Assembly (NCBI GenBank): GCA_012646185.1
Contig: GCA_012646185.1_4706.1
Strand: one strand, 5' to 3'
DNA: 64,000 nucleotides
Source: a phage
The notes under the pieces were generated by a model that had not been told where the DNA came from, did not search any database, and was given only the letters and a program-made list of their open reading frames with translations. Below are positions 6,347-51,545 of the stretch, in pieces (position 1 is the first letter of the stretch; each line of letters opens with the position of its first letter). A program made the position numbers and the translations under genes.

Positions 6347-6405
6347 TCACCTAGGTAATGTAAGCGTCAAATTTTTTCTATTCGCAACAATAAACGGCAT
6401 AGAAA
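6347..6405 (-). promoter_or_regulatory. conserved intergenic element, copy B (promoter or 5' leader candidate)
   Basis: Shares CACCTAGGTAATGTA...GCATAGAA core with copies at 12829..12888 and 51485..51545; lies between the hairpin after the 740-aa gene and the next minus-strand gene. Confidence 0.4.
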
Positions 6406-6435
6406 CCTCCCCCAACCCTTACGGGCTGAGGGAGG
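6406..6435. terminator. GC-rich hairpin downstream of 6535..8757 (intrinsic terminator candidate)
   Basis: CCTCCC...GGGAGG outer stem with inner CCC/GGG stem and 4-nt loop; member of the recurring intergenic hairpin family. Confidence 0.55.
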
Positions 6436-6534
6436 CTGACTTATGTATCACGGTGCCGGATGAATGTCCGGTGCAATGAAACCATCCGCAACGTTGTCGT
6501 CAAGAATATCGTCCAACGAAGCAGCTACGGTAGT

Positions 6535-8757
6535 TCAGTTAGTCTGAACCGGCAGCTTGATGTTTTCAGTGTAGACCTTACGCAGGTTCACAACGTTAAT
6601 CAGACCCAGCAGCGGGCAGTTGTTAACGAAGCGGCAGCGCGGCTGAACCATGGTTTCTTTAGAAACCTGACCGTTACGGGTAACCTGAGCAACAGATACC
6701 AGTTCCGGTACATACAGGAACATACCGAAGGTCAGCGGATCCGGAGAACCCTGGATACCACGAGACAGGGTCACGAAGATCTTATCGCGCAGCATGACGT
6801 TCGGGTTATCTACAACCACGAAGTTGAAGCTTACACCAACGGTACGGAAATCGCCATCGGTCTGCAGGAACTGCGGGATGTAGTTGTCAGTTGCTACTAC
6901 GCAACGCGGTTTCTCATCAGCGTTGGAAGACAGCAGCTGCAGAGCTGGCTGATAACCAGACTCGGAGTACATGCGGTATGCCATCTCACGAATCACGTTC
7001 ATGATCGCAGCAGACACTTCAGCACGACGTTCTGCAGTGGTGGTACCCTGAACAGATTTCTCCAGGTCCAGATTGATTTCTTCGAACCACGGACGGATCA
7101 GGTAACGACCGAAACCTTCGATCTGGATGTCGCCGAACTGACGGAAGCGAGAGGTCGCAACCGCTTTCAGTGCGTCTTTGTAGCTGAACAGTTTCTCAAC
7201 CATCAGGTTGTCGAAACGTGCGTTAGCAGCTTGGATCAGAACGTCCAGGTCAGCAGCGTTTTCTTCCCAATCCAGCGGACGAGGAATGGAGAACGGAGCC
7301 AGCAGGCCGATTGCGTAACGTTCTTGCTTCATGTTGAAGTCAAGGTGCTTACCGCGCTCACGACGGTTGCTGTTGTTACGGCGGATACGCAGTTCGTAAC
7401 CAACCAGTTTGAAGCTCAGGTCTTCAGCCAGCTGTTTGAACTCTTCGCCCTTACGCGGTTGTTCGATGTTGTCACGATCGACCAGACGATACAGTTCAGC
7501 GTTAGCGCCGTTAACACGCAGACCGGCTTTCTCTACGTTGGAAGAACCGTAAACTTCGATTGCCAGCTGAGCAGCGGATTTCGAATCGATGATGTCCTGC
7601 AGCGCTTCAGCTCGTGCACCTTTAACGTCAACGGTGTTCTCATCAACGAAGATGGAGTGGGTGTCGAACGCCAGGGTCATTTTGCGGAAGTCGCCTTCCA
7701 GGGATTTCTGGAAACCGTTGGTGATCAGACCAGATACGTCGAACGGTACGTAAGAGGTTTTGCTGTGCTTGGTAGATTTGATTTCCACCAGGATTTTGGT
7801 CAGCGTGATCTGGGCGTCCAGCGCGTCGGTGTTGTCGCTGTAACCGTTAGCCAGGATGCTATCGTCTTCAGCGATACCGATCATGTCGATCAGTTTATCA
7901 ACAGCCAGGTAAGACGTTTTATAAGTTACGCCTTTAATTTCGATGTCGCGCGGAGCAACGATAGCTTTGTCAACGAAGTACTGTGCGTTAGCATCGTCAG
8001 CACGATAGATCGGATGCAGATCGGTCACGTCGTTGGACAGAACGTCGTTGTACATGAACGCATCCAGCAGCGGACGACGTACCCAATCAGCCGGAGTACC
8101 GTCAGCGTTACGACGCAGGTGGTTGAACACCAGCGGACGACGGAAAGATACGTCGTAACCGATCTGGTTCGGAGCCAGAACGATGGTGTTGTACAGTTCG
8201 TTACCCATGCGGCTCAGACGAGAAGCCTTCACGTTGAACACAACGGAGTACGGCATCATGTCACGCAGTTCTTTCTGGTCGTAGGACAGCTGAACCAGTT
8301 CTTCAGATTCGCAACCGCAGGAATCAGCAGCCATCATGACGAAGTTAGAGCTGTCAACTTCACGGCCAGACGGAGTGGTGCTGATGTTCATGGAACGTGC
8401 TTGTTTAGCATATTCCACCGGGTTACCATGAGCCAGCATGATCAGTGCTGCTGCACGAGCCTGCTGTGCGTTCATGGTGAACAGCTGTTCTTCAATACGC
8501 TGCTTCTCTTCCGGAGTGGTGGTTTCGAAGCCCAGCATGGACAGAACCGGTTCTTCGGCTTTACGGATGTCGCTGCTGAAGCTCTTAACATCCATTTCGT
8601 TAACCAGTTTGTCCATGGATTTGAAATCAACCTTAGAAGCAGATTCCATAGACAGGAAGGTGTTCTCCAGACCTTTGTCTGCTGGTTTGCTACCATTAGC
8701 GGTCAGGAACTGGCGAGTGGCCGCGACCTGTTGGCTAAGAAGGGTTTTATCATTCAT
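6535..8757 (-). CDS. major virion structural protein, tentatively major capsid protein (740 aa)
   Basis: Strongest codon bias in the window (its antisense strand is stop-free for about 2.3 kb, ORF 6460..8760); AAAGGA 8 nt upstream of ATG; followed by hairpin; size fits jumbo-phage capsid proteins but no motif confirms the fold, and a tail sheath protein is an alternative. Confidence 0.45.
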   Translation of the reverse strand: MNDKTLLSQQVAATRQFLTANGSKPADKGLENTFLSMESASKVDFKSMDKLVNEMDVKSFSSDIRKAEEPVLSMLGFETTTPEEKQRIEEQLFTMNAQQARAAALIMLAHGNPVEYAKQARSMNISTTPSGREVDSSNFVMMAADSCGCESEELVQLSYDQKELRDMMPYSVVFNVKASRLSRMGNELYNTIVLAPNQIGYDVSFRRPLVFNHLRRNADGTPADWVRRPLLDAFMYNDVLSNDVTDLHPIYRADDANAQYFVDKAIVAPRDIEIKGVTYKTSYLAVDKLIDMIGIAEDDSILANGYSDNTDALDAQITLTKILVEIKSTKHSKTSYVPFDVSGLITNGFQKSLEGDFRKMTLAFDTHSIFVDENTVDVKGARAEALQDIIDSKSAAQLAIEVYGSSNVEKAGLRVNGANAELYRLVDRDNIEQPRKGEEFKQLAEDLSFKLVGYELRIRRNNSNRRERGKHLDFNMKQERYAIGLLAPFSIPRPLDWEENAADLDVLIQAANARFDNLMVEKLFSYKDALKAVATSRFRQFGDIQIEGFGRYLIRPWFEEINLDLEKSVQGTTTAERRAEVSAAIMNVIREMAYRMYSESGYQPALQLLSSNADEKPRCVVATDNYIPQFLQTDGDFRTVGVSFNFVVVDNPNVMLRDKIFVTLSRGIQGSPDPLTFGMFLYVPELVSVAQVTRNGQVSKETMVQPRCRFVNNCPLLGLINVVNLRKVYTENIKLPVQTN

Positions 8758-8906
8758 TGAAAGTATCCTTTACAGAATTAACTTATATAAGTCGGTCGAT
8801 AGACCATAGCGTACACGCGTGCATGCGCCACTATAGTATCAGTAAACACTTACCGTTATTGAGGTCGTGATACAACACTAAAAATGCCGCATAACTTTTC
8901 CCTACG

Positions 8907-9527
8907 TCACAAACGACGCAGGCGATAATGGATGGAACGATTGGTGCAATATGAACGGAACAGCGGCAATTGCGCAACTTCCGCAAGACTCATATTAATT
9001 CGCAGGTGTTCAATAACGGCGCTGTAGTTATCAGCAATACGATCGCTCAATAACTCTTCTGCCAATAAAGGAAGACAATCGACAACAATCGCGATCACAT
9101 CCTCATTAACATAACGCACCCGAACACTCAGCGGACGTTTGTCTGGGCTGTAAGTTGGATCCGCCAAACGACGTTCAATATCACGCGGATAGCTCGTCAG
9201 TAAATGGTAATAACCATTGTCATAACGATTGATGTACTCACACAGCACATCAACATTCTTCTCTGGCGGCAAACCTGTTTCGTCATAGTGATACGCAAAC
9301 ATACCACCAAGCAGGTTGTTAAGATGAACCGCAGGGTTCGCTTGTTCGTGTTCTTTCGTGATGAAGAAAGGCACGTTCTGGGCTGCGAAATAAAAACCTA
9401 CATCATTGGGCGATAGTATGCCGAAAAGACTTTTAGGGTCTAATAACACCTGTAAGTCATCACGCGCATTTCGAATAATCGCGTGTTCTACCCAATTCGG
9501 AACGACGAGATATCGGAGTTCCTTCAT
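8907..9527 (-). CDS. hypothetical protein (206 aa)
   Basis: ORF with AAGAGGTAA upstream of ATG at 9525-9527; divergent from 9567..11177. Confidence 0.7.
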   Translation of the reverse strand: MKELRYLVVPNWVEHAIIRNARDDLQVLLDPKSLFGILSPNDVGFYFAAQNVPFFITKEHEQANPAVHLNNLLGGMFAYHYDETGLPPEKNVDVLCEYINRYDNGYYHLLTSYPRDIERRLADPTYSPDKRPLSVRVRYVNEDVIAIVVDCLPLLAEELLSDRIADNYSAVIEHLRINMSLAEVAQLPLFRSYCTNRSIHYRLRRL

Positions 9528-9566
9528 TATGATTACCTCTTTGCAAGTATCGAAAGGATTGAGTCG

Positions 9567-11177
9567 ATGGACCCAAAACAGATAGCCATTAAGATTATTA
9601 CGTTACTGTTTCGTAATGCACAATTGAACCATCCCGATCCCAGTACGATCGAACATGTTAAATCCGTCTTAGATAAAGTCGAACCCCCGAAAAACCATCT
9701 CGCTACAGACGTAGATAGAGAGGTTTTCAACAACCTGATGAATACCATTCATTGGATGTTGGAACAACCATTATCGGAACCTTTCGATAAACAACAGTTG
9801 TTACAAAGGATACGTTTGGATTGCCTTGAACAAAGCAATCTTTACGAGATTCTTGCCGACGGACTGTACGATATCGAAGACGACGCTCATATCAGTAAGG
9901 TCTGTTCGCTCTATTACAATGAATTACGTAATCTGATTACCCGGCGTCGTGTTTTCGAAACCTTTAAAAACACGTACATGGATATCAGTAACGGGCGACT
10001 TGGGGATAAAGAATTTTTCGATGCGATGGCGAATCTGAAATTATCGCTAGACAGTATCGAAATGGATACCGAAAATCCCGAAGAGATGTCGTGTATGATT
10101 GACGGCTTTATCGCTGACAGCGAAGACGATATCGAGAAAGTTGAACGTATGTTCGTCAAAGCGATGGAACGTAACAGTCCTGAAGGTGGATTTGTAACCG
10201 GCTGGCAAGGCTTTAATAAAATGTTGGGGTCGGTCGGCGTTTTACGTCGCGGTACCTTAGGACTGATTGGTGCAATGCAGCACCGGAACAAGTCAGGCGT
10301 GTTGTTAAAACTGTTCACACATCTGGCATTGTACAACAAACCCCATTTCTTTTTCCCAGAGCGAGCAAAGAAAGCATTACTGATTCATTTGTCGACAGAA
10401 AACGAAGTGGAAGAAAACACGCTTCAGATATACAAGAACATGCGAGAACAGGAAACGGGCGAATATGTCGATATTCGTAAGATTGACCCTCGCGAGGCAT
10501 CACGTTATGTGTTGAAGGTGTTCAACGATGCGGGTTTCTCTGTTTGTATGCGTCGTGTTGATGGGATGAGTTATAAACAACTCGCTAATCTCATCGACCA
10601 TTTCGAACGCATGGGTTATGAAGTCATGGCGTTGTTCATTGACTATCTGAAAATGTTCTCATCGGAAGGGTTGGATAGAAATGGACCGACCGGCGCATGG
10701 CTCCAAGAACTCTTCAACAAAGTCCGTAACCTCTGCAGCGTTAAACGTATTTTAGGTATGACGGTACACCAGCTGTCATCCGATGCGAAGATGCGTGCGC
10801 GTGATGGTAACGATGAAGAGTTTGTTGACCAGGTCGCAGGTTTAAGTTACTGGGATGGTTGTAAAGGGATCGACCGTGAGATTGACCTTGAGGTGATTGT
10901 TGATATCGTTAAGGAGCCGGGCAAACGTCAAAGTTGGCAGGTCTTTGCGTTAGGGAAAGACCGTCAACCGGATAACGGTTCAACGAAACCTGAAGACAAA
11001 CATTTCGCGATGCCATTCCAAACCATCGGGATGCTTCCTGATGATTACGGTAAGAAAGCAGTATACTGCCGCAAGGTTGGCGGACAACCTGTCTCCGAGG
11101 GAGGTAAAGGTCCGTGGAACAAGTTCGATGAAAACGCAGCACCGAGTAATGAATTACAATTTGATTTAGAATTTTAA
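9567..11177 (+). CDS. hypothetical protein (about 536 aa)
   Basis: Long plus-strand ORF; start placed at ATG 9567 (AAGGA 8 nt upstream) rather than the GTG at 9483, which would overlap the divergent gene; no clear Walker or catalytic motif. Confidence 0.7.
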   Translation: MDPKQIAIKIITLLFRNAQLNHPDPSTIEHVKSVLDKVEPPKNHLATDVDREVFNNLMNTIHWMLEQPLSEPFDKQQLLQRIRLDCLEQSNLYEILADGLYDIEDDAHISKVCSLYYNELRNLITRRRVFETFKNTYMDISNGRLGDKEFFDAMANLKLSLDSIEMDTENPEEMSCMIDGFIADSEDDIEKVERMFVKAMERNSPEGGFVTGWQGFNKMLGSVGVLRRGTLGLIGAMQHRNKSGVLLKLFTHLALYNKPHFFFPERAKKALLIHLSTENEVEENTLQIYKNMREQETGEYVDIRKIDPREASRYVLKVFNDAGFSVCMRRVDGMSYKQLANLIDHFERMGYEVMALFIDYLKMFSSEGLDRNGPTGAWLQELFNKVRNLCSVKRILGMTVHQLSSDAKMRARDGNDEEFVDQVAGLSYWDGCKGIDREIDLEVIVDIVKEPGKRQSWQVFALGKDRQPDNGSTKPEDKHFAMPFQTIGMLPDDYGKKAVYCRKVGGQPVSEGGKGPWNKFDENAAPSNELQFDLEF

Positions 11178-11203
11178 ACGCAAAAAAAAAAGATTGTGCG
11201 GTT

Positions 11204-11235
11204 CCCTCCTCCAACCCGTAAGGGAAGGAGGAGGG
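11204..11235. terminator. bidirectional hairpin terminator between convergent genes
   Basis: CCCTCCTCC-AA-CCC-GTAA-GGG-AA-GGAGGAGGG; preceded on the plus strand by an A10 run (T10 on the minus strand), the classic intrinsic terminator form for the minus-strand gene. Confidence 0.7.
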
Positions 11236-11251
11236 GTTATGACCGCTTTGA

Positions 11252-11578
11252 TTAACTTATTGTCATGAATTCATTAGGTGAAAATTTCCAGCCGTTCTCA
11301 GTGAGAAGCGTGTTGAGTTTCGCTGCAACGATAAGCCATGCATGCATGGCTGTTACATCGTATTGGCGATTCACTCGACGTTGGTTTTCGATATTGATTT
11401 GCTCCTGTTCAGTGATGTTTGGATAAAGTGCGATAGCGCTAGGTTTACCCAGCGCGCTAGTCATCACCGCCGTACATTCACTGATAATGTTGTTTAAGTG
11501 GTAGTTATACACCGTTCCACGCATGACGCGATGACGGCATTCGATAATAGCGTCGTAAATGATTTCTCGAGTAATCAT
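11252..11578 (-). CDS. hypothetical protein (108 aa)
   Basis: ORF tightly following 11585..11986; no obvious SD, so start is uncertain. Confidence 0.55.
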   Translation of the reverse strand: MITREIIYDAIIECRHRVMRGTVYNYHLNNIISECTAVMTSALGKPSAIALYPNITEQEQINIENQRRVNRQYDVTAMHAWLIVAAKLNTLLTENGWKFSPNEFMTIS

Positions 11579-11584
11579 GATAAT

Positions 11585-11986
11585 TTAAAACATACGGTCG
11601 TTTTTAGCACGGGCGTCCATTACCAGATCGTAGATGCCTGCGGTTCGTAAGCACTCTTCGTAGTAACGATGTGTGCCTTCCTCAGCCATCCACGATAACC
11701 CACGGCTATCCGCAACAATAACCAGTTTGTTATTGTTGAACGCACACACCACACGGTAGGTCGCGTTGTTATTCGGATCGCGAGTGATAAGTTCGTAAAC
11801 GCCGTTAACAGGTTTACTGAATTCACCGTTTAACGGAACGAGTTCGGTAGTACCTTCAGCAAACGTTACGTTGATCGGTGATGGGTCTTTAGCGATAACA
11901 GTATATTCCACATTGTGTTCTTTACTGGTCATAATACCGAAGTAAGAACTCACAGGGGAACGTGGTACACTAAGAATATTAAACAT
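11585..11986 (-). CDS. hypothetical protein (133 aa)
   Basis: ORF with AAGAGGA 8 nt upstream of ATG. Confidence 0.65.
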   Translation of the reverse strand: MFNILSVPRSPVSSYFGIMTSKEHNVEYTVIAKDPSPINVTFAEGTTELVPLNGEFSKPVNGVYELITRDPNNNATYRVVCAFNNNKLVIVADSRGLSWMAEEGTHRYYEECLRTAGIYDLVMDARAKNDRMF

Positions 11987-12056
11987 AGATGTTGTCCTCT
12001 TAATTGGATTTAGATTGTTGGGTGTGTTATTGGGAAATGAAAACGTTGTTTCGGTT

Positions 12057-12626
12057 TTAGACGATGAGTGACCAGGTGGTAAGCACCCCGCTTGCGAATT
12101 CGAGCTTAAGACGTTTACCGATAAGTTGTTGTTGGATCATCTTCTCGGTGATACGTCGATCATGCTGAACCGCTTTATCAAACGCTTCTTTCGCTTCAGC
12201 TTGGTAGAAGTTCGTTTCTTCGTTTTCGTCGATCTCTTCGAGAGCATCGTCGTCGATGTCAGCAAGTTTCACTCGACCGTTTTCATCAGGTTGTTCTGCA
12301 GGTTCATTGTCATACGGCGTGTCTTTTGTTGGTGCGACACGATGTTGCAACTCGACCTGCGTTAACATGATCTCCATCTCACCATCGATAGGAATGATTT
12401 CATCGGCGCTGCCGTTTTCGGTCAGCTCTCGACTTTCCAGTAATGTCGTCGTAACAGAGAACACCTCTTCAACAGGAACCTCATCATCGTCGATGGTGTT
12501 AACCGTATTGCTGGTAACTTCGGCAACAACCATCAAATCAAATGCGTGAGGGTCACCTGGCATTTTGATTCCTGGAAGTTTGTTGAGGTACCAAGGATCA
12601 AGAATCATGATTTCTGGATTAAACAT
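12057..12626 (-). CDS. acidic hypothetical protein (189 aa)
   Basis: ORF with AAAGGTAA upstream; D/E-rich composition. Confidence 0.7.
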   Translation of the reverse strand: MFNPEIMILDPWYLNKLPGIKMPGDPHAFDLMVVAEVTSNTVNTIDDDEVPVEEVFSVTTTLLESRELTENGSADEIIPIDGEMEIMLTQVELQHRVAPTKDTPYDNEPAEQPDENGRVKLADIDDDALEEIDENEETNFYQAEAKEAFDKAVQHDRRITEKMIQQQLIGKRLKLEFASGVLTTWSLIV

Positions 12627-12828
12627 CGTATTTTACCTTTCTATGTTAGGTGGATTGCGGATAGAAGAATCAATGCATAGATTGATAGTTCTTTGTTAGA
12701 AATTATTGCCGAACCGGTTATGGTTATAACGCGTGTTTTCGTATTCTGACGGGTCGCGTATTAATAAGGCCATGACTGTATCCTCGATTATTAAGAGAAA
12801 TTTACAACGATAACAGTAACCGCTGTTA

Positions 12829-12888
12829 TCACCTAGGTAATGTAGTCGCGAAATAAACTGGAGTAATGCGAAATAAGACAGCATAGAA
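12829..12888 (-). promoter_or_regulatory. conserved intergenic element, copy A (promoter or 5' leader candidate)
   Basis: Nucleotide-level match to copies B and C; immediately adjacent to hairpin 12889..12920; the ORF-track 12696..13097 crosses it but its frame is not conserved between copies. Confidence 0.45.
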
Positions 12889-12920
12889 CCCTCTCCCAAC
12901 CCATCAGGGAAGGGAGAGGG
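12889..12920. terminator. GC-rich two-tier hairpin 4 nt after stop of 12925..14292
   Basis: CCCTCTCCC-AA-CCC-ATCA-GGG-AA-GGGAGAGGG. Confidence 0.6.
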
Positions 12921-12924
12921 AATA

Positions 12925-14292
12925 TTAAACGGTTGGGCGAACGGTGTTGTCTTTTTCTGGTGCAAGCCATAACGTGACCGTACCATGGCATGTCCACTGT
13001 GGTTCACGTACAGAAGAACCTGCCATCGTAACAGCACAATCGGTACGCATGATAACCCCGTATGCTTCGCAGAGATTGTTATCCTGCATCCACACAACTT
13101 TAGCAGGCATGCCAGGATACAACAAATCCATGTTTGCGTATTCCCACACCAACTGCATTGTTCTGCCGCGTAATCCAGCAGTATTACTTAATTCACGCCA
13201 TCGGTTATCGGTTACGCGCCCCATCCCTTTCGCCACCTTCACGTTATCGCTACGTTCTTCAGTTACGTACTCGCTAACGTTTACGGTACGACTGATTATC
13301 GTATCACCCCCTTTTGATAATGTCATTCCCTGACTCATCTGACTTGCCGAAACAAAACGCCCGCCCGCATTACCTAACAACGAAGCCGCGTTATTGATGT
13401 CGCTTACCGACGCCCCTCTCGTACATGCAATTTCCACGTATTTGTCACGATTGATCCAGGTCTTGTCCATGCCCGGAAACATATCGGCAGGATAGTTGTA
13501 AAAGATAGCCGTACGGCGGCCATCAGAGAAACGGGTTTCGTCATAGAGAGGATAAATATACAGATACGGGGATTGATAATAACAACCGACATCCGCTGAA
13601 TAAATACCGACCTGGTTCTGGATTTTGTCTACGAGATCCATTGCGTTGGTACCGTGTGGAAGAATAAGCAACTTGAACAGGTTGTCGTTATTCGGTGCAA
13701 CAATATCCACACCCTGCATTTTGAACCCGGTATCGGCTTCAACCGCAGAAAGTATCTTGCTGAATTCGAGCCGTAACACATCCAGCACTTTCGACCCGGT
13801 ATAGTTTTCACCGGTTTCTGATTGCATGAAGCTTTCAAGAACAGGATCGAACAGTTGAAATTGAAGATCGACCATTTGTTCGTAGTCTTTCTTCGAAGAA
13901 TCGGTTGCGGTACGTTCGTCGTTAGCAGACATACGACTGTCTACGGTTGTTAAACAAACCGCCCGGTAGACGTAAGCTTGCGCAGCATCGTCTACGGTTT
14001 GGCGTTGTCCGCGCATCAGGCTGTACGCCTGCACGATGATGCGCATTTTAAGTTGTTGTTGGTATGGTAGAATGTATTTTCCGTAACTGCCCGGTGGGAA
14101 CTTTACAGAAATATAAAGTTCATCCCCTGCGTTACGTTCATAGTCTCGATACGTGTGGACTTGAGTCACTAAAGGAACAGACACCGTCATTGACGGCGTG
14201 ATTAATTCCGCGGTGACTTTATACGCAACAGCAACTGCTTCCTGCGCAAATGTACCGATATACCGTCCTAACGGCGTCTGTTTGTAATCCAT
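12925..14292 (-). CDS. hypothetical protein (455 aa), probably structural
   Basis: Last gene of a translationally coupled minus-strand chain (16200..17765, 14897..16213, 14295..14900, 12925..14292). Confidence 0.75.
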   Translation of the reverse strand: MDYKQTPLGRYIGTFAQEAVAVAYKVTAELITPSMTVSVPLVTQVHTYRDYERNAGDELYISVKFPPGSYGKYILPYQQQLKMRIIVQAYSLMRGQRQTVDDAAQAYVYRAVCLTTVDSRMSANDERTATDSSKKDYEQMVDLQFQLFDPVLESFMQSETGENYTGSKVLDVLRLEFSKILSAVEADTGFKMQGVDIVAPNNDNLFKLLILPHGTNAMDLVDKIQNQVGIYSADVGCYYQSPYLYIYPLYDETRFSDGRRTAIFYNYPADMFPGMDKTWINRDKYVEIACTRGASVSDINNAASLLGNAGGRFVSASQMSQGMTLSKGGDTIISRTVNVSEYVTEERSDNVKVAKGMGRVTDNRWRELSNTAGLRGRTMQLVWEYANMDLLYPGMPAKVVWMQDNNLCEAYGVIMRTDCAVTMAGSSVREPQWTCHGTVTLWLAPEKDNTVRPTV

Positions 14293-14294
14293 GT

Positions 14295-18141: not shown

Positions 18142-18193
18142 CGCAGATTCCTGTTTGAAAGATAAGATATCACATGATGGTCGACAGCATAAA

Positions 18194-18213
18194 GCCCACC
18201 CCGAAGGGCGGGC
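18194..18213. terminator. hairpin after 18230..21616
   Basis: GCCCACCC...GGGCGGGC stem with one mismatch; followed on the minus strand by TTTATGCTGT as at other hairpins. Confidence 0.5.
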
Positions 18214-18229
18214 TGTTTATGCGTACGGA

Positions 18230-24130: not shown

Positions 24131-24162
24131 CCTTCCTCCAACCCAACAGGGAAGGAGGAAGG
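24131..24162. terminator. GC-rich two-tier hairpin
   Basis: CCTTCCTCC-AA-CCC-AACA-GGG-AA-GGAGGAAGG between 22722..24023 and 24173..25462. Confidence 0.6.
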
Positions 24163-26788: not shown

Positions 26789-26836
26789 GTGTTGTCTCCA
26801 GTAATGATTCAAAAGATAAACCTGAGCGGCATAGAA

Positions 26837-26868
26837 CCCTCTCCCAACCCGTTAGGGAAGGGAGAGGG
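26837..26868. terminator. GC-rich two-tier hairpin
   Basis: CCCTCTCCC-AA-CCC-GTTA-GGG-AA-GGGAGAGGG between 25472..26788 and 26891..28213. Confidence 0.6.
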
Positions 26869-35111: not shown

Positions 35112-35143
35112 CCCTCCTCCAACCCGTCAGGGAAGGAGGAGGG
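35112..35143. terminator. bidirectional hairpin between convergent genes
   Basis: CCCTCCTCC-AA-CCC-GTCA-GGG-AA-GGAGGAGGG. Confidence 0.65.
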
Positions 35144-35152
35144 AATATGCTG

Positions 35153-38100: not shown

Positions 38101-38758
38101 CACCATCGTTGCCAGACGGCTGTAATGCAAGTGCTTGTTCAAGGATTTTGCGGTCAACAGCATAAAGCGCCGACAGAGCCTGTGTTACCGCAACCAGATC
38201 AACGATCGGCGACCAGAGCTGTGCGAGCTTACCTTCGTATTTCTGTACAGCGATAGCAAGGTCTTCTTTTACGTCAGGATGATTGATTAAACCACCCAGC
38301 GCTTCATGGATTGCAGAAAAACGTTCAGAATGTGCTTGAGTTAATGCAACAAAATCGTCAACGTACGATGCATTTTCTTCAAGGCGTGCAAGTTCCTGCT
38401 CCAGAAGATCTTTTACTTGCGTGGCGGATGCGTTTCTCAGCTGTTCCCCGATAATCGCGATGGCTTTATCGACAACACGACAAGCTTCATTGAAGCCTGT
38501 CGTTGAAGGTAACTCGGTCCATAATGCCAGCGGCTTACCTTCCATTGCGTCAGGAAGGGAATATGACAACATTGCTAGTTGTTGACGTGATACCTGTTTG
38601 TCACGATGTAACGTTTCTTTCAACGCCAGAAGCTCATCAAGACCCACACTGCTAGGGATCGTGGGATGTGATACGGCGTTGATATTTTCTGTCAATGACT
38701 CAAGAACCAATAAACCATTTTCAGCGGAAGATAACCCTGCTTTAAGGTATTTGTTCAT
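35153..38758 (-). CDS. very large helical protein (1201 aa) sharing ELVQEGF motif with 38840..41632
   Basis: Long ORF; ACGGAG 7 nt upstream; internal RIELVQEGFFGPILKLF; hydrophobic C-terminal segment LIWAFASLFCAALNAYIALKY; a tape-measure role is not excluded. Confidence 0.8.
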   Translation of the reverse strand: MNKYLKAGLSSAENGLLVLESLTENINAVSHPTIPSSVGLDELLALKETLHRDKQVSRQQLAMLSYSLPDAMEGKPLALWTELPSTTGFNEACRVVDKAIAIIGEQLRNASATQVKDLLEQELARLEENASYVDDFVALTQAHSERFSAIHEALGGLINHPDVKEDLAIAVQKYEGKLAQLWSPIVDLVAVTQALSALYAVDRKILEQALALQPSGNDGADEEYNAITAVPSTDINVLMPYFDQAGNLIPTESVATPKEWDGKTLLNVLGTAVFASRIMRDVVNDYPETAALVKQLIERVDSAQADERLDNIGYLAVIARLQNARIVYQRMLVQCVRTVLTCAEVVAELVMSVSETATAVRSEQLWDKTQEEIEAADGYTRIELVQEGFFGPILKLFDKKGPNPLLDNKASNGWKYLENIQQQIAQTYANKSWVERNIHDKPVVSKRVARALSFDDGKVRMPMIVLKEAISAMRSVQKLVEAPAQARHAKLKQLEEKALRRVKAGENQYQVAKDTLAEAKKIKPLSTIPESSYPKWLGYKYSTFFNMLMLEEPVTDELPKLNVDDVVETGKFLTNDAAKALKEFTTADVFCGTGCDTELWNYDAFGDDDELYDQFYLHSKFNETSATDVYYTYLEAFVNVCSATVEWLARQTSLKALKMEGYGIYTAESAWETLRRTMEYTVNILKRLVDWLVKSWRNGSAKAAIQQAEANNSQLTRAKDALLTEGTKKRLASLHTVGIQTIAKYAEAGTIWSGAFKGVTDNLGNVSALISSEVKELSNGRELDQDKLAKIREGLALAFEKGNFNKVLLGHDGITIDNLASEIHDYREELKDQFKESTNESIDVDKLIRYNDGCRKFLQGPITDARNKVSGHELDNLLTMLNSMIRQQASSPENKGLGALKNEIVNARDLAKAAVDVLGIAQWLEVRAKRYINALSTVVDKANSEAAAVSGSLKQEAFDLNETVLSSTNYDVCSVAATSLAANRFRNSRDELRRHYNQALEAAFQVYNRAVYNRAVIGQHLLGVMPRFTGVFSNYPWTLGLDLQVSNPAALDAFCEKLSRSIELYGAGTADSITQAVALLDSTELCYAVDPNYEGESGNSSALATHMFEYRRLAKEALEPHSDFTTEEQRRVMVTTFMDSSPSWEPDNTLPVVTEDVDPSLIWAFASLFCAALNAYIALKYGTDLKVYGWFSEQQNSNNVR

Positions 38759-38773
38759 AAAACACTCCGTTGA

Positions 38774-38804: not shown

Positions 38805-38839
38805 GTTGAACAACGCGTACGGTTATACGGTACGCACGA

Positions 38840-42069: not shown

Positions 42070-42102
42070 GTTAAATTCCTTTATAGTAGAAGGTGAATTA
42101 GG

Positions 42103-45134: not shown

Positions 45135-45165
45135 CCTTCGTTCTGTAAAAACTTACCGATATATA

Positions 45166-45211
45166 GAAATTACTGTGAGATACCAAAGGTACTCGTAAGT
45201 TTAGTAATTTC
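45166..45211 (+). other. hairpin (9-bp stem GAAATTACT/AGTAATTTC, 28-nt loop) between exonuclease gene and HNH gene
   Basis: Read directly from sequence; could be a terminator or part of an intron 5' structure. Confidence 0.4.
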
Positions 45212-45227
45212 TGAGCGGTAGGTAAAT

Positions 45228-46364
45228 ATGTTGGAACATCTTGAACATTTAGACAATGAATACTTAAATTTCACCAATCGTCGTTATCGTATCTTCGAAG
45301 ACGGTACACTTTACGATTACAAAGAGAATTGTAAAGTACCTGTTATAATAGAAGATAACAACTCTTACGTTATTATCGATTGGTATCGTGGGGTTGGTAA
45401 ATACGAATTGGGGATGATCATGCTTACAGCATTTGATCGCATCCACATTCCTAACTATCTTTACGATGAAATTGAATCGTTGTTTATTGATAACGACCCG
45501 ACGAACTTTTCGTATAGTAACCACATCTATCGTTTCCGTAATGGACCGCTGGCTGTGGAAGGGTATCCGGGATATTACTACATCCCGTTTGCCACGTACT
45601 ATGCGCTAAATGAACAAGGTGAATGTTTAAGTCTTTTGTCTGGGGAAGGTATAACGTGGACAATGACGCAGCAAAACGGTACGCGGCGTCCCGGCTATCG
45701 ATACAGAAAGGTAACACCTGATAGCGGTTTTACGGCTCAGCTGTATCGTCATCGAGCGATGATGTTGACGTTTCGTCGTTACGACGCAAGCGTTGTGGAA
45801 ATGACCGTTAATCACAAGAACGGTATTAAAGGCGATGATTGGCTGGATAACCTGGAATGGGCAACCTACAAGGAAAACAACAATCATGCGCGTATAAACG
45901 GTTTATGTGACGGCAAAGCGAAACCTATCAAGATCTTTGATTATAATCGTCATACCGAACGTCATTTCAAGAGCATCGCTGAGGCGGAACGTGCGTATCC
46001 ACACGTAGCAAAAGGACGTTTCAAATGGTGGGTTGAAAATCCACCGAAACGTATACCTGAATGTAACCTCTACATCAAACATGCGTTCGATAATACTCCG
46101 TGGCCTGAATGGAAACTGGGTGATGAACGACGTATTGAAGATGTAGCGGGTATTCCGATTATCGCCCTTAACATGGTTACAGGCGAGAAACGAGTGTATT
46201 CATCGGTTACAGCTGCGGGTAAGGATACGAAAACAAGTTGGATAACAGTACGACGTCACTGTGATAAGCGTGTCGTTCCTGTTAAACAAGCATGGTGTTT
46301 CCGTTATGCTGACGACGTCAAAAACATGCCTGAGTTAACTTCCCTACCAACAATCGAACAGTAA
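45228..46364 (+). CDS. HNH homing endonuclease
   Basis: HNH signature TVNHKNGIKGDDWLDNLEWATYKENNNHA; C-terminal repeated DNA-binding-like modules (SIAEAERAYPHVAKGRFKWW, SVTAAGKDTKTSWITVRR); gene visibly more AT-rich than its surroundings. Confidence 0.85.
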   Translation: MLEHLEHLDNEYLNFTNRRYRIFEDGTLYDYKENCKVPVIIEDNNSYVIIDWYRGVGKYELGMIMLTAFDRIHIPNYLYDEIESLFIDNDPTNFSYSNHIYRFRNGPLAVEGYPGYYYIPFATYYALNEQGECLSLLSGEGITWTMTQQNGTRRPGYRYRKVTPDSGFTAQLYRHRAMMLTFRRYDASVVEMTVNHKNGIKGDDWLDNLEWATYKENNNHARINGLCDGKAKPIKIFDYNRHTERHFKSIAEAERAYPHVAKGRFKWWVENPPKRIPECNLYIKHAFDNTPWPEWKLGDERRIEDVAGIPIIALNMVTGEKRVYSSVTAAGKDTKTSWITVRRHCDKRVVPVKQAWCFRYADDVKNMPELTSLPTIEQ

Positions 46365-47091: not shown

Positions 47092-47141
47092 TTCAAGTAG
47101 GTTGATCCTCGTTTAACAAAAAAGAAAACACATGCGAAGCT

Positions 47142-47169
47142 CCTCCCCCTGGCGGAAGCCGGAGGGAGG
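47142..47169. terminator. hairpin with GGAA tetraloop
   Basis: CCTCCCCCTGGC-GGAA-GCCGGAGGGAGG, 11 of 12 pairs; downstream of 47178..47663. Confidence 0.6.
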
Positions 47170-47177
47170 GGTGAGGT

Positions 47178-47663
47178 TTATGCGCGTTCGTTACCAACCG
47201 TTACTTTGTAGTCAGCGTCGGTTAAGAATATAGACAGGAATCCATGTTCTTTGCAAATCTGACTAAGGATGTCAGCAATGATTTCGTTGATCATCGGCTT
47301 GTTTGCAAGGGCATAGATGTACCCGGGTGTAAAAGAAAGTGCGTGATTGATCATAGGCTCATGAGAAGCCAAGATAAGGATCACGTGATGCTTCCCATCG
47401 TCGGTAACGACCGCTTGCGTAGACACGAAGAAATCAGTGAAGCAGCAGCGATCACAGGCTTTAGGTATATACAAGTCACCCAGAGCTTCGTTACGTGCTT
47501 TTACGTGTGTTTCAGGGGTGATGCTGCTAAGTTGATCTTCAGCGAGATCCAAGACATCCTCAATCGTTTTAAGAATAGCGTTGCGGAAATCCTCACGGTA
47601 GAATGGGATGATATCACGATCGTTCATGTAATCGCCGGATTCGATAGTAAAGTTGATGTTCAT
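47178..47663 (-). CDS. small hypothetical protein (161 aa), accessory island
   Basis: ORF with AGGAG 6 nt upstream. Confidence 0.7.
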   Translation of the reverse strand: MNINFTIESGDYMNDRDIIPFYREDFRNAILKTIEDVLDLAEDQLSSITPETHVKARNEALGDLYIPKACDRCCFTDFFVSTQAVVTDDGKHHVILILASHEPMINHALSFTPGYIYALANKPMINEIIADILSQICKEHGFLSIFLTDADYKVTVGNERA

Positions 47664-47773
47664 TGAATGCTCCTAGTGGTTATGTCGATTGATTGATGTA
47701 TTGATTTATGTTTGATGGGGTATACTTGAAACTACAAATAAGGCTCTTGGCGTTGCTGTTATGGTTCAGTTCT

Positions 47774-48226
47774 TTATCCCTTGTTGGATTCGTCAATATA
47801 CTTGGTGTCGTAAGACAAATGCTGAATTAATTTTCTAGGTCTGATGAATATACGACATGTGATAAACACATCAGGATTGTATTGTTCCACGCAACGTCCG
47901 AAGGCTCGTTTTGCGGCGTGACGCATCAACACTAATTCCCGATCGTTCATCTCATCATCAAATTCGATGTGTATCGTGATTTTATCGGGAAATAAATAGA
48001 TAGAGTAATCGCCACCAATACCGCCGTCGTCAAAACGATAATCGTTGTGGTAATGGTGAAGTTTACCTTCGTGTATCGTCTGGTACCACCCGACGTTACT
48101 ATCAAGGCCCATACCCAGGCGTCCGAATGCCTGATTAATAATATCTTCGACGACGGATGCGGGTGTGGGGCCATTGAACAATCTATCCAGACGTTTTTTC
48201 ATCGATTTGTCGTTTTTCATGTTCAT
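47774..48226 (-). CDS. small hypothetical protein (150 aa), accessory island
   Basis: ORF between hairpin 48255..48290 and the 47664..47773 spacer. Confidence 0.65.
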   Translation of the reverse strand: MNMKNDKSMKKRLDRLFNGPTPASVVEDIINQAFGRLGMGLDSNVGWYQTIHEGKLHHYHNDYRFDDGGIGGDYSIYLFPDKITIHIEFDDEMNDRELVLMRHAAKRAFGRCVEQYNPDVFITCRIFIRPRKLIQHLSYDTKYIDESNKG

Positions 48227-48254
48227 TGTTTCTTTTCCTGTGTAGTCGGTATAC

Positions 48255-48290
48255 AGCCCTTCCCCGGCCTTGGTGGCTAGGGAAGGGGCT
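48255..48290. terminator. GC-rich hairpin
   Basis: AGCCCTTCCCC...GGGAAGGGGCT. Confidence 0.5.
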
Positions 48291-48301
48291 ATGCTACGTT
48301 G

Positions 48302-48700
48302 TTATGCTTCGCAATCAGCTGAAGGCGTCGCGCCTTTCTTACCGGCGATACGCCAAATCCGACACGCTGGGTAATGGTTAACCTCTAGAGAGCAAGGAAT
48401 GTTATATTTCTCTTCCAGCGCATAAAGACATTTCGTTAGCTGCTCCAGCGCGTTCTCGTCGTGTCGTAACGCGTGGTGGCCTAATCGATGTTGGTCGTTC
48501 TTTATATACGCCTCGAAGAGAACATGTTGGCGATGTACGCTGACGTTTACAGCCTCGAGTATAGCTTGGTCGAGCATACGACTAAAGCACATCAACGAGT
48601 CAGATACGTTTTCTCGCTTAACCAGATCGATCATGGCGGGAATATACGAATGGTCGATGTTATCGATGACCGCTTTAGCGACGGAATCAGCAACGTTCAT
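48302..48700 (-). CDS. small hypothetical protein (132 aa), tandem paralog of 48736..49131
   Basis: Shared blocks VKAV.DNIDH...MID..K.E, EKYNIP.SLEVN..PA with its neighbour. Confidence 0.7.
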   Translation of the reverse strand: MNVADSVAKAVIDNIDHSYIPAMIDLVKRENVSDSLMCFSRMLDQAILEAVNVSVHRQHVLFEAYIKNDQHRLGHHALRHDENALEQLTKCLYALEEKYNIPCSLEVNHYPACRIWRIAGKKGATPSADCEA

Positions 48701-48735
48701 CTTTTAATCCCTAGTTTGTTATTGATCACGTATAT

Positions 48736-49131
48736 TTACTCTTTGACGTCAGTTGTCGTTTCGACATGCTTCTCACTACTGACGTACCAGAGCAGGTACG
48801 CTGGGAAAAGATTGACCTCTAAGCTAAATGGGATATTGTATTTCTCTTCCATTTTACAGAGATGTTCTTTAAGTAAATTTCTCGCGTCTCTGTCACCACG
48901 AACAGAGTGCCAGTCTAGTTCTTTGTTCTCCTTTACCAGGACCTCTACGATGATACGTTGCTCGTGAACCTCGGTTTTCACAGTGAAAAGTAAATCGCTG
49001 CTATCAAAACGGGTAAAACGAATGTATGAACCAGGTGTTTTTTCTTGTTTAATAATATCGATCATGGTAGAAATGCGCGGATGATCGATGTTGTCGTTAA
49101 CAGCTTTAACGATGGATTCTACAATGCTCAT
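48736..49131 (-). CDS. small hypothetical protein (131 aa), tandem paralog of 48302..48700
   Basis: See paralog; ATGA overlap with the upstream micro-ORF. Confidence 0.7.
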   Translation of the reverse strand: MSIVESIVKAVNDNIDHPRISTMIDIIKQEKTPGSYIRFTRFDSSDLLFTVKTEVHEQRIIVEVLVKENKELDWHSVRGDRDARNLLKEHLCKMEEKYNIPFSLEVNLFPAYLLWYVSSEKHVETTTDVKE

Positions 49132-49226
49132 TTTTTATCCTTAATGTTATCGATATTGACGAGTTCATCAATACGGCACTGTTGGTTGAATTCGATTAAT
49201 CGTTGAACTTTATCTTTGATAGACAT
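49128..49226 (-). CDS. candidate micro-ORF (32 aa, MSIKDKVQRLIEFNQQCRIDELVNIDNIKDKK)
   Basis: Not in the ORF track (below 60 aa); starts 2 nt after the stop of 49229..49687 and ends in an ATGA overlap with 48736..49131. Confidence 0.3.
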   Translation of the reverse strand: MSIKDKVQRLIEFNQQCRIDELVNIDNIKDKK

Positions 49227-49228
49227 GA

Positions 49229-49687
49229 TTACCCATTAGCTCCTTCTTCGTCTGGAGAGTACTCCATTGTGTAGAATTCATAACCATCGGAAAACTTGAG
49301 TGTTAATGTAATAGGGAAATCGCACGGCGTAGCTGATTTCGTAAATGCGTTATTAGCAACATCTGCCAACCGACGTATAGCATCAGTCCCGCTGACGCTG
49401 AATGGTAGTTGTATGTTGATAAGGATACGATGCTTGTAAACATAGAAAACAACGGTACTGTCAAGATAGACGCTATGGAACGGTATTGTTGGGATGCGTT
49501 CCACGATGGTAAAATACGTCCCGTCATTATCGCTATGTCCCACCGACCAAATATCGGATTTGCGTAGATTTTGTTTGAGAGATTCGATGCTTCGAGTGAC
49601 GGTATCAGCAACAGGCGTGACGTAAGCGTCTTTATGCGAGTCGAAAAGTTCGTTGACGTTAGATTCGAATGAAAACGTTGTTGCCAT
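49229..49687 (-). CDS. small hypothetical protein (152 aa), paralog of 49753..50253
   Basis: C-terminal similarity ITLTLKFSDGYEFYTMEYSPDEE versus VILTINGHDGSGLFEFHYDPDNE. Confidence 0.7.
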   Translation of the reverse strand: MATTFSFESNVNELFDSHKDAYVTPVADTVTRSIESLKQNLRKSDIWSVGHSDNDGTYFTIVERIPTIPFHSVYLDSTVVFYVYKHRILINIQLPFSVSGTDAIRRLADVANNAFTKSATPCDFPITLTLKFSDGYEFYTMEYSPDEEGANG

Positions 49688-49752
49688 TTTCTACCTCAAT
49701 GGTTTAACCGATACGTGCCCCACCTAACAAGGGACACGTTATCGTTGATTAA

Positions 49753-50253
49753 TTACTCTTCTGTGTTTTCATTGTCGGGATCGTAGTGGAATTCGAACAG
49801 CCCTGAACCGTCGTGCCCGTTGATTGTTAGTATAACGGGCATATCGAATCCTCGGACACGCGAATGAAAACACTGTGCTAATTTGAGTTTGGCGTATGCC
49901 GCTATTTCATTGACAGCAATACACGATTCACCTGTTATACTCAGTATAACGTCGATACTAACAATGTTGTCGTGCAACGCAAAACGCCAGCGATCGATAC
50001 GATTATTATCTTTATCGGTTGTCTCGTTTACGAGATAGACTTTATCGTCAACCGACAAAGCGGGACTCCAGCAACGATCGTTTATTAAATTCGCCTGGAG
50101 TTTTAGTATCGTCTGATCGATAATATCCCAACACGTAACCAGCGTGGTGTCAGGCACTGAGTAGAGAAGGGCGTGCACTTTATCCTTTATTTTAAGTGCT
50201 TCCGCAGGACGTCCGCAAATACCATGCATTTCAACTTTCTTATTCATATTCAC
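49753..50253 (-). CDS. small hypothetical protein (166 aa), paralog of 49229..49687
   Basis: See paralog. Confidence 0.7.
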   Translation of the reverse strand: MNMNKKVEMHGICGRPAEALKIKDKVHALLYSVPDTTLVTCWDIIDQTILKLQANLINDRCWSPALSVDDKVYLVNETTDKDNNRIDRWRFALHDNIVSIDVILSITGESCIAVNEIAAYAKLKLAQCFHSRVRGFDMPVILTINGHDGSGLFEFHYDPDNENTEE

Positions 50254-50290
50254 TTCTTTCTTAATCTAAATGTTAGTTGGGGTGGAATGC

Positions 50291-50923
50291 TTACATGCTT
50301 TCTAACATATCGATGATCATGGAACCCATACCGAAACTCGGTCTTTCACCGATGTACTCAGCAAGCTGGCGATGGACGTCTTTTGGATTTCCTTCTTCAC
50401 CATCGGCATCGATGTAGACCGAAAAAGAAAATGAATCGGAATCCACGCTGATAACCAGACGACGTTCATTGCGTTCCTTGAGCGTGTCGACGATAGCTGC
50501 TTTCAGTACTGCGATCGCGTTCATCGCGTGCAAGATATCTCCATCGGGTTTCGGCAGATCGATCTTTTCTTTCAGGTCGATATTGATGTTGGTTACAATT
50601 GGGTTGAGGTCGACCTTGACGTAATCGTTAGGGTACATGCGAATAATCGCACGATCGATATCTGAACCGTAAAAGTCAACACGTGGCTTTAACACTTCTT
50701 TGTTTGGATCCATGTTTTCATCCATACCCGCCTGCAAGAAACGTTCTACGTTATCCAGTTCACGATAAACTGACGCTTCGATTTCTTTCAGATAGTTGGC
50801 TGCGGTTTCATGTTCTTTACGCAGCTCGTCTTTAAGGAGCTGTACGGTGACTTCACTGGAACGAATGCTGTTCGCGAATTGGGTAATTGACATATCGAAT
50901 TCCTTAAATTCTCTTGAGTTCAA
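50291..50923 (-). CDS. hypothetical protein (210 aa)
   Basis: ORF; no motif. Confidence 0.7.
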   Translation of the reverse strand: MNSREFKEFDMSITQFANSIRSSEVTVQLLKDELRKEHETAANYLKEIEASVYRELDNVERFLQAGMDENMDPNKEVLKPRVDFYGSDIDRAIIRMYPNDYVKVDLNPIVTNINIDLKEKIDLPKPDGDILHAMNAIAVLKAAIVDTLKERNERRLVISVDSDSFSFSVYIDADGEEGNPKDVHRQLAEYIGERPSFGMGSMIIDMLESM

Positions 50924-50991
50924 TTAATGATGAAAAGCTGTAAAAAAAGGTGGGGCGAACCCCACCAAAACGTCAGACACACGCAGGAAAA

Positions 50992-51417
50992 TTAATTCAG
51001 TGACGCATATAACGCATAACGACTGTAGATCTCAACCGCCGGTCCGTTATGCGTTAACAGACCATCCCGGTTGTAATACTGGAAAAATGAATAACGTTTG
51101 TCGAAGTGATAAACAAAAGCAATGTCTTTGCTGCCAAGACCTGTGATGCGTGGTCTGTTTTTATCTAACAGCGCTTTGACTTTTAACAGTGTTGCCGCAC
51201 GTGCTTTAACGTTAGGGATTAATCCATCACAATCGATATAAACTGTGTAACCTGTTTCAGATGTTGCGACGGTCGTATTGCGATTGACGCGGAAGATTTT
51301 TGTTTCGTATGTACTATCTTCAAGAATTGGGTTTTGTTTTTCGTATTTTCGTTTACGCAGAAATTCTACAACGGTGATATAGTTAGCGGTAATATGCCCG
51401 GTTATAGCTTGTAACAT
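50992..51417 (-). CDS. hypothetical protein (141 aa)
   Basis: ORF preceded by conserved element copy C. Confidence 0.7.
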   Translation of the reverse strand: MLQAITGHITANYITVVEFLRKRKYEKQNPILEDSTYETKIFRVNRNTTVATSETGYTVYIDCDGLIPNVKARAATLLKVKALLDKNRPRITGLGSKDIAFVYHFDKRYSFFQYYNRDGLLTHNGPAVEIYSRYALYASLN

Positions 51418-51484
51418 CTTGACATCCTTTTATATTGGATTGGTTGCAATTGTCTTAAATAGATGATAAGATATTTTGCTCTTA

Positions 51485-51545
51485 TCACTAAGGTAATGTA
51501 GTCGTGAAATAAACTGCGTTAACACGAAATAAAAACAGCATAGAA
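51485..51545 (-). promoter_or_regulatory. conserved intergenic element, copy C (promoter or 5' leader candidate)
   Basis: TCACTAAGGTAATGTAGTCGTGAAATAAACTG...ACAGCATAGAA; a 1-nt indel relative to copy A breaks any shared reading frame. Confidence 0.45.

Follow-up and report, generated by a model that had tools for sequence, protein, structure and literature searches.

Three copies of a conserved element of about 60 nucleotides (nt) lie on the minus strand of a 64,000-nt stretch of phage DNA (contig GCA_012646185.1_4706.1, hereafter the window), and each copy very probably acts as a module that separates two transcription units in a nucleus-forming jumbo phage related to Goslar. According to this model, a GC-rich hairpin followed by a TTATGCYGT tail would terminate the late operon on its upstream side, whose transcripts come from the non-virion RNA polymerase. 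An early promoter would then follow, consisting of a T/A-rich upstream stretch, a core of the form TAYATTACYT near position -10, and a start G located 7 nt after TAYATTAC. From this promoter, the injected virion polymerase would transcribe small early-gene islands that lie within the late structural region, and these islands would include a gene for a subunit of the second, non-virion polymerase.

The phage can be placed by comparison with Escherichia phage vB_EcoM_Goslar, a 237,307-bp nucleus-forming jumbo phage of the genus Goslarvirus (Chimalliviridae) whose host is E. coli. Positions 5000-14000 of the window are 97.9% identical to Goslar, and the whole window aligns to Goslar 36,871-99,218 with 89-97% identity and a few insertions or deletions (indels). 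As an overall figure, the identity of the window to Goslar is 96-98%. All expression evidence discussed below concerns Goslar genes and is read across to the window by homology.

An earlier note on this DNA had reported the element at 6347..6405, 12829..12888, and 51485..51545 (copies 1, 2, and 3), and all three copies are present there. The 19-mer ACTACATTACCTAGGTGAT, searched with up to three mismatches, occurs at only these three places in the 64 kb, while 0.00 occurrences were expected from 100 dinucleotide shuffles. With an nhmmer profile built from the copies, each of them reaches 64-78 bits (E 1e-19 to 1e-23), and the next-best match in the window (E = 0.03) covers the 5′ half only. The 1-nt indel described previously is real and separates copies 2 and 3 in the alignment. 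Open reading frames (ORFs) do cross two of the copies, namely copies 2 and 3, but conservation is at the nucleotide level, as had been proposed: the ATG-initiated frames differ among the copies, and those of copies 1 and 3 stop after 17 codons. The placement of each copy 3′ of a strong hairpin and 5′ of a minus-strand gene was likewise borne out.

The sequence conservation is thus as described, whereas its treatment as one 60-nt unit does not hold. Two adjacent elements, a terminator tail and then a promoter, are the better description, because the 5′ part occurs without the 3′ part and the 3′ part has a 14-member family of its own in Goslar. The 5′ part (TTCTATGCYG) is found without its partner at 26826-26838, 18184-18196, and ~52040, directly after hairpins at 26837-26868, ~18190, and 52047-52078. 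The 3′ part, about 40 nt downstream of the 5′ part, comprises a T-rich stretch and TACATTACCT-nnn-TGA. For the same reason, the idea that the whole element is a phage-specific promoter applies to the 3′ part but not to the first ~11 nt, which belong to the terminator tail.

In all likelihood, the 3′ part is an early promoter of the phiKZ family, and by analogy it would be read by the virion RNA polymerase. The family was collected by fuzzy matching and then with an nhmmer profile of the 3′ block. In this genome-wide motif search, as suggested in the earlier note, exactly 14 sites were obtained in Goslar, all on the minus strand and intergenic (25-40 bits; next match 7.5 bits), and exactly three in the window. 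A genome-wide Markov analysis of k-mer over-representation gave no signal. The Goslar family has the consensus of a T-rich stretch followed by TAYATTACYT-nnn-TGA, and its members precede chmA (gp246), which encodes the nuclear shell, gp165, which encodes a non-virion polymerase subunit, and blocks of small genes. Among Goslar-like genomes, the variation in the copy 2 promoter falls on the non-consensus positions 11-13.

Early promoters of this type have been described repeatedly. A published consensus table covers phiKZ, 201phi2-1, EL, OBP, and N1M2 (Lewis 2020, PMC7058600), with TATATTAC for phiKZ, TTTRARR_BTATATTACDWHDGTG for 201phi2-1, and ...CCTACATTATY for EL, and further data on phiKZ-like phages are available (Ceyssens 2014; Wicke 2021, PMC8244752; Putzeys 2024, PMC10914365). 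According to a review, early operons are preceded by a conserved AT-rich motif in every jumbo phage that has two polymerases (PMC7598289). The window copies share the sequence features of these promoters. Near -10, all three carry the AT-rich core TACATTAC, which matches 7 of the 8 bases of TATATTAC and corresponds to the EL-type variant; TATATTAC itself is found in 8 of the 14 Goslar family members. At about -20 to -30 lies a TTTCA-type, A/T-rich upstream element (WWWWWTTTCARR), in the form AAAAAATTTGACGCT in copy 1 and GTTTATTTCRCGAC in copies 2 and 3, compared with TTTTCACGRC or AAAAAATTTCAGGGT in the Goslar family. The same core and upstream element can be read directly at intergenic sites of the phiKZ genome, and the chmA promoters of phiKZ (tgaaaaaaatttgagattTATATTAC) and Goslar (tgaaaaaaatttcagggtTATATTAC) are nearly superimposable. 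Mapped phiKZ early starts fall on a G about 7 nt after the core (TATATTAC-N6-G; supplement of 10.1101/2023.10.13.562163), and a G is present at the equivalent position in every copy. From these mapped starts we infer the start nucleotides listed in Table 1; that of copy 3 would lie 69 nt before the ATG at 51417. As in the phiKZ family, the promoters head early operons that include nuclear-shell and non-virion polymerase subunit genes.

The Goslar-type promoter differs from other phiKZ-family early promoters in that it belongs to a Goslarvirus infecting E. coli and in having an extended and strongly conserved downstream part (ACCTAGGTGA). As an exact 16-mer, this extension recurs at ~45 promoter-like sites in other viral contigs (220-245 kb) and in the Xanthomonas phage Xoo-sp14. 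The variant found at chmA, TATATTACCTAGGTGA, preceded by ATTAAAAAAGATTTCAGATA, was retrieved as an exact 16-mer at 45 distinct sites in viral contigs of 220-245 kb. Nearly all the contigs with TATATTACCTAGGTGA sites are jumbo-sized, several sites occur per contig, and a site often lies just after a hairpin with a T-run tail. An extended early-promoter consensus thus appears, as judged from sequence, to be common to a broad group of jumbo phages. The exact 16-mer TACATTACCTAGGTGA was also observed ~40 nt after a hairpin with a CTTTATGCCGT tail in Xoo-sp14 (30620-30730, the only such site in its first 50 kb) and in a metagenomic relative (L017, 10984-11060), which amounts to the same composite arrangement. 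The shared 16-mer represents a shared signal rather than a shared gene, because tblastn detected no similarity between the genes at the L017/Xoo-sp14 locus and Goslar genes. No published Goslar early-promoter consensus was found in the literature searched, and the word 'promoter' is absent from the Goslar RNA sequencing (RNA-seq) paper (10.1101/2023.09.20.558163).

That paper nevertheless contains the data by which early function can be judged. Armbruster et al. reported Goslar RNA-seq as per-gene counts for control infections and for infections with ChmA knock-down (10.1101/2023.09.20.558163, Sup. Table 2); in the latter, the phage does not progress beyond the early vesicle and the virion-polymerase programme alone runs (10.1101/2023.09.20.558163). 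The Goslar genes in this table fall into two classes, with log2 fold changes of ~0 to +1.3 versus -3 to -7. Each of the 14 promoter sites marks the 5′ edge of a gene block whose expression persists in the knock-down. These blocks are headed by gp004, gp021, gp040, gp047, gp075, gp105, gp159, gp165, gp175, gp182, gp246 (chmA), gp225, gp214, and gp200, while the adjoining late genes gp005, gp022, gp041, gp048, gp076, gp160, gp213, gp224, and gp199 drop by log2 values of -3 to -7. In Goslar, the headed blocks are therefore expressed early without the phage nucleus or the non-virion polymerase. The region corresponding to the window contains exactly three early blocks, and they match the three copies one to one. 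Behind copy 1, gp037-040 change by about +0.7 to +1.2, next to about -4 for gp041, which encodes the major capsid protein; behind copy 2, gp044-047 change by about +1, next to -3.2 for gp048; and behind copy 3, gp070-075 change by about +1.0 to +1.3, next to -4.5 to -6 for gp076. The decreases of genes directly upstream of such blocks, the major capsid gene among them, amount to 8- to 100-fold. The promoter reading put forward in the earlier note is thereby upheld for the 3′ block, both through its match to the phiKZ-family motif (core, T-rich element, and start G) and through its location at the edges of Goslar early blocks.

Armbruster et al. also gave an RNA-seq-derived transcription start site (TSS) for the polymerase subunit gene gp247, at most 91 nt upstream of its start. 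The corresponding spacer (Goslar 170953-170976, outside the window) lacks the early-promoter motif; all it contains is the terminator hairpin that follows chmA, with its TTATAC tail. This 'TSS' may be a processing site or the result of partial termination rather than a promoter.

By analogy with phiKZ, the 5′ part (TTCTATGCYGT) is the conserved tail of a predicted intrinsic terminator that would end the upstream late gene. A phiKZ motif, BCCYCCCCHWWDGGGRRGGBYTTATKYYGT, is present at 61 terminators (Putzeys 2024, PMC10914365) and is echoed in 201phi2-1 (motif A). The assignment of the neighboring hairpins as terminators was correct in this sense, as hairpin and TTATGYYGT tail together correspond to the published motif. 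All copies have a GC-rich hairpin with a C-rich 5′ arm and a G-rich 3′ arm close to a stop codon, with folding energies (Table 1) calculated on 50-nt stretches ending at the tail. The hairpin of copy 1 lies ~100 nt past the stop codon of the major capsid gene (ORF 6535..8757), and its G-U pairs can form in the minus-strand transcript only; that of copy 2 begins 5 nt past the stop of a structural gene (ORF 12925..14292), and that of copy 3 lies 6 nt past a stop. A TTATKYYGT-type tail, T(T)CTATGCCGT or TTCTATGCTGT, directly follows each stem. Across Goslar, where TTATGCYGT is the usual form, TATG occurs in the first tail bases of 40 of 67 strong hairpins, compared with 3.2% of random positions (~19-fold). 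The Goslar terminators resemble those of phiKZ and 201phi2-1 in arm composition, in the tail at the stem, in their proximity to stop codons, and in that many copies are bidirectional. They differ in that the stems are longer and many belong to one near-identical 32-nt repeat, and the three window copies read TTCTATG instead of TTTATG. The step from late to early expression in Goslar is sharp, which is consistent with RNA 3′ ends in the tail, as mapped in phiKZ only; termination at these hairpins would follow the phiKZ example.

The 32-nt repeat itself, CCCTC(C/T)TCCTTCCC-NNNN-GGGTTGG(A/G)G(A/G)AGGG, has at least seven copies in the window and about 15 in Goslar. It carries a conserved 2x2 internal mismatch of U.U (or A.A) and (T/A)TATG on both sides, and it is a candidate bidirectional terminator. 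Its sequence identity is far above what terminator function alone requires.

The same composite exists at the orthologous site of phiKZ, where the capsid gene gp120 is followed by a hairpin, the tail TTTATGTTGT, 33 nt, and TATATTAC, and then by gp121-123. Written out, the gp120-gp121 spacer reads GGCCCTCCC-TTCG-GGGAGGGCT, TTATGTTGT, 33 nt, TATATTAC. The phiKZ terminator T057 after the capsid gene was mapped experimentally at 120629, inside the tail, and a TTATGYYG tail likewise stands a short distance before P017 and P028, two phiKZ early promoters that have been validated by experiment. On account of this orthologous module and the P017 and P028 tails, the terminator-promoter composite is an old and recurrent arrangement.

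Several points weigh against this interpretation. The RNA-seq table is per gene, apparently unstranded, and derived from Goslar rather than from the phage of the window, and the boundaries are thus fixed to the intergenic region and not to the nucleotide. The starts are predicted from phiKZ instead of being taken from nucleotide-resolution 5′- and 3′-end maps of this phage or Goslar. All window copies carry TACATTAC, and none has the canonical TATATTAC. Furthermore, an E. coli-style terminator scan misses the three hairpins, whose tails are too T-poor for it, and for this reason termination here rests on the phiKZ analogy.

Among the other explanations, one concerns the origin of the copies rather than their function and is compatible with a boundary module. 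The similarity of the copies, especially of copies 2 and 3, could reflect a mobile or recombining regulatory cassette and not just separate selection on two consensus signals, which we regard as unlikely, although not strikingly so. Across the spacer, copies 2 and 3 share ~85% identity, which goes well past the family consensus, and one Goslar-like genome combines the copy 2 core with the copy 3 variant TTAGTGA. Gene content also changes directly beside the modules: three extra ORFs (263, 286, and 148 amino acids) directly follow the copy 2 promoter in IMGVR_UViG_3300045988_173921 (10423-12666), 0.65 kb of extra sequence lies before the copy 2 terminator in IMGVR_UViG_3300011560_000001 (1622-2274), and early block 3 of the window (48310-49243) contains ~0.9 kb with two small ORFs more than Goslar. 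However, these comparisons involve a handful of genomes, no duplicated cassette was seen beside the insertions, and the position of copy 1 is conserved with phiKZ, which marks it as ancient and not mobile. Part of the resemblance over 60 nt may be due to duplication of a cassette or to gene conversion.

The T4 promoter-early stem-loop (PeSL) cassettes (Arbiol et al. 2010) reportedly mediate modular gene shuffling. They too are repeated units of a stem-loop and an early promoter that border variable early genes. The order here is terminator and then promoter, and a phage polymerase rather than host sigma-70 would be involved; evidence for cassette-mediated exchange in the present case is limited to the nearby indels.

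A second possibility, improbable in our estimation, is that the TATG of the tail additionally acts as a start for the non-virion polymerase (G at 6398, 12882, and 51539), so that late and early promoters would stand in tandem. Transcription arriving from upstream would then halt at the module and resume from it late, and the islands would be continuously expressed, as in AR9, whose tandem early and late promoters produce 'continuously expressed' genes, among them those of polymerase subunits (Lavysh 2017, PMC5312081). The phiKZ late promoter is indeed TATG (T-3 A T G+1), and TATG is present in all three window tails and directly after most strong hairpins. TATGC-type motifs also occur in divergent late intergenic regions that lack hairpins (e.g., Goslar 197099 and 197155), and for late genes such as Goslar gp052, the short spacer upstream offers nothing but the tail TATG. 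On the other hand, phiKZ 3′ ends map within the tail at T057, for which no start is listed, and the mapped late starts near phiKZ terminators use a separate TATG further downstream (P049 and P054). The best-studied late promoter, P119L, lacks a hairpin, and TATG tails also flank convergent gene pairs, where a promoter would yield antisense RNA only. The boundary module therefore resembles AR9 in placing two polymerase-specific signals before genes that include non-virion polymerase subunits, but its upstream signal is best read as a terminator tail, initiation at which is disfavored by the phiKZ data. The hairpin was also considered as a component of the late promoter and rejected, given that P119L and the divergent late intergenic regions of Goslar do without one.

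It is very unlikely that the 60 nt encode a conserved 5′ leader or a small regulatory RNA, whether riboswitch-like or akin to the small RNAs reported in phiKZ-like phages. The intergenic location and nucleotide-level conservation would suit such an RNA, and a regulatory leader had been offered earlier as the alternative to a promoter. Yet the start predicted from phiKZ is preceded by almost the whole conserved sequence, so the leader alternative finds no support. The conserved block has no internal pairing, the 5′ stem-loop described below is the sole structure and lies downstream of the reported element, and no Rfam 15 family reached its gathering score anywhere in the window.

An ordinary host sigma-70 promoter is still harder to sustain. 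TATATT and TACATT do resemble the -10 hexamer, and copy 1 contains TTGACG, but the spacing of the latter to any -10-like hexamer is wrong, and a consensus scan (-35/-10, 16-18 nt spacing) yielded no minus-strand site in the three regions. In addition, conservation extends over ACCT-nnn-TGA, which sigma-70 does not read, and infection of the phiKZ type is independent of host RNA polymerase. Finally, a conserved small protein such as the annotated gp047 is scarcely credible: despite the ORFs across copies 2 and 3 and an ATG following a G-rich, Shine-Dalgarno-like hairpin arm in all three copies, the indel shifts the frame between copies, the 17-codon frames of copies 1 and 3 give unrelated peptides, and the ATG sits in the terminator tail, upstream of the predicted early start.

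A further feature of the early transcripts is a predicted 5′-terminal stem-loop, which begins at +1 in most relatives (Table 1). A compensatory change from C-G to G-C distinguishes the stems of copies 2 and 3, and in contig IMGVR_UViG_3300045988_173921 the copy 2 arm has been re-registered with pairing kept. The mean folding z-score of the 14 Goslar promoters is -1.5, versus +0.09 for a downstream control; for 43 distinct TATATTACCTAGGTGA promoters from other jumbo-phage contigs, it is -1.7 versus -0.06 (Mann-Whitney p = 8e-6), with pairing within the first 4 nt in 39 of the 43. Stem sequence varies while pairing is kept; this applies to copies 2 and 3, to most of the 43 related promoters, and to half of those in Goslar. 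Speculatively, such a hairpin could be a tag by which transcripts of the virion polymerase are exported from the early infection vesicle or bound by an RNA-binding protein of the phage, for instance ChmC, although we give this idea a low chance. A more ordinary guess is protection of the mRNA against host RNases at its 5′ end, for which T7 and ompA provide examples.

Downstream of the copies lie three early operons (Table 1). The second gene after copy 1 (ORF 2925..4724) is a homologue of phiKZ gp123, a beta-like subunit of the non-virion RNA polymerase (PDB 7ogp_E, PHIKZ123, E 6e-41; PHROG 2943 'polymerase', E 7e-120), and its position behind an early promoter is as expected of early products. 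This was the only confident match in Pfam and PHROG searches with ten downstream proteins; a weak match to an unnamed PHROG and two Pfam matches below the cutoff were not usable, and the proteins of the copy 2 operon had no Pfam or PHROG matches.

Table 1. Predicted features associated with the three copies; positions refer to the window.
Feature	Position	Strand	Sequence or content	Basis and remarks
Copy 1, predicted early promoter	6347..6384	-	AAAAAATTTGACGCT + TACATTACCTAGGTGA	Profile 37.4 bits, E 7e-11; predicted start G 6348
Copy 2, predicted early promoter	12829..12866	-	CAGTTTATTTCGCGAC + TACATTACCTAGGTGA	Profile 37.5 bits, E 7e-11; predicted start G 12830
Copy 3, predicted early promoter	51485..51522	-	CAGTTTATTTCACGAC + TACATTACCTTAGTGA	Profile 38.8 bits, E 2.5e-11; predicted start G 51486
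Copy 1, predicted terminator hairpin	6405..6436	-	GCCTCCCTCAGCCC-GTAA-GGGTTGGGGGAGGT	Fold of 6450..6401 (-30.5 kcal/mol) and hairpin finder
Copy 1, predicted terminator tail	6394..6403	-	TCTATGCCGT	phiKZ-type TTATKYYGT tail
Copy 2, predicted terminator hairpin	12889..12920	-	CCCTCTCCCTTCCC-TGAT-GGGTTGGGAGAGGG	Fold, -26.6 kcal/mol; member of repeated hairpin family
Copy 2, predicted terminator tail	12878..12888	-	TTCTATGCTGT	Sequence
Copy 3, predicted terminator hairpin	51546..51585	-		Fold, -29.1 kcal/mol; upstream ORF 51591..51992
Copy 3, predicted terminator tail	51535..51545	-	TTCTATGCTGT	Sequence
Copy 2, predicted transcript 5′ stem-loop	12809..12830	-	GAUAACAG-CGGUUA-CUGUUAUC	Near-identical Goslar copy, z = -2.9
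Copy 3, predicted transcript 5′ stem-loop	51465..51486	-	GAUAAGA-GCAAAAUA-UCUUAUC	Goslar copy, z = -3.6
Early operon of copy 1	28..6197	-	Homologues of Goslar gp040, gp039, gp038, gp037	
Early operon of copy 2	11252..12626	-	Homologues of Goslar gp046, gp045, gp044	Ends at bidirectional hairpin 11203..11236
Early operon of copy 3	47178..51417	-	8 small ORFs: Goslar gp075-gp070 and two extra	Ends at hairpin 47139..47172
32-nt hairpin repeats	58225-58260, 35112-35143, 26837-26868, 24131-24162, 12889-12920, 11203-11236, 62667-62696	both		

Two leaders contain short reading frames. Within the 151-nt leader after copy 1, a 10-codon upstream ORF, ATGCGTGATAGTTTTCAATCAGATGGAGGTTGA (6200-6232, minus strand), runs across the GGAGG ribosome-binding site of the gp040 homologue and stops 2 nt short of the ATG of that gene, and translational coupling between the two is possible. 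The 204-nt leader of the gp046 homologue contains a 24-codon ORF with a GAGGA ribosome-binding site (12772-12698). The annotated Goslar gp047 (62 amino acids, Goslar 49584-49772; window 12698-12888) is probably not a real gene, because its ATG lies in the terminator tail, upstream of the predicted early start. Elsewhere in the window, 36788-38460 and 45150-46363 have no megablast match to Goslar; one of them falls inside the gp064 region, and the other replaces the region of the NUMOD1/HNH endonuclease gene gp069, which suggests homing-endonuclease turnover.

This kind of signal is well known in phiKZ-like giant phages, and the present modules are a further case without a new mechanism. What they provide for Goslar-type phages, which serve as the E. 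coli model of phage-nucleus biology, is a practical map that consists of an early-promoter consensus and 14 predicted early units, three of them in the window, that match the published early transcriptome. The arrangement would account for the insulation of early gene islands, including a non-virion polymerase subunit gene, inside late structural operons, and it flags gp047 as a probable mis-annotation. The promoter sites offer targets for the design of reporters and knock-downs and for phage engineering. More broadly, Pseudomonas phiKZ and the jumbo phages of enterobacteria and Xanthomonas would share a conserved promoter specificity of the virion polymerase.

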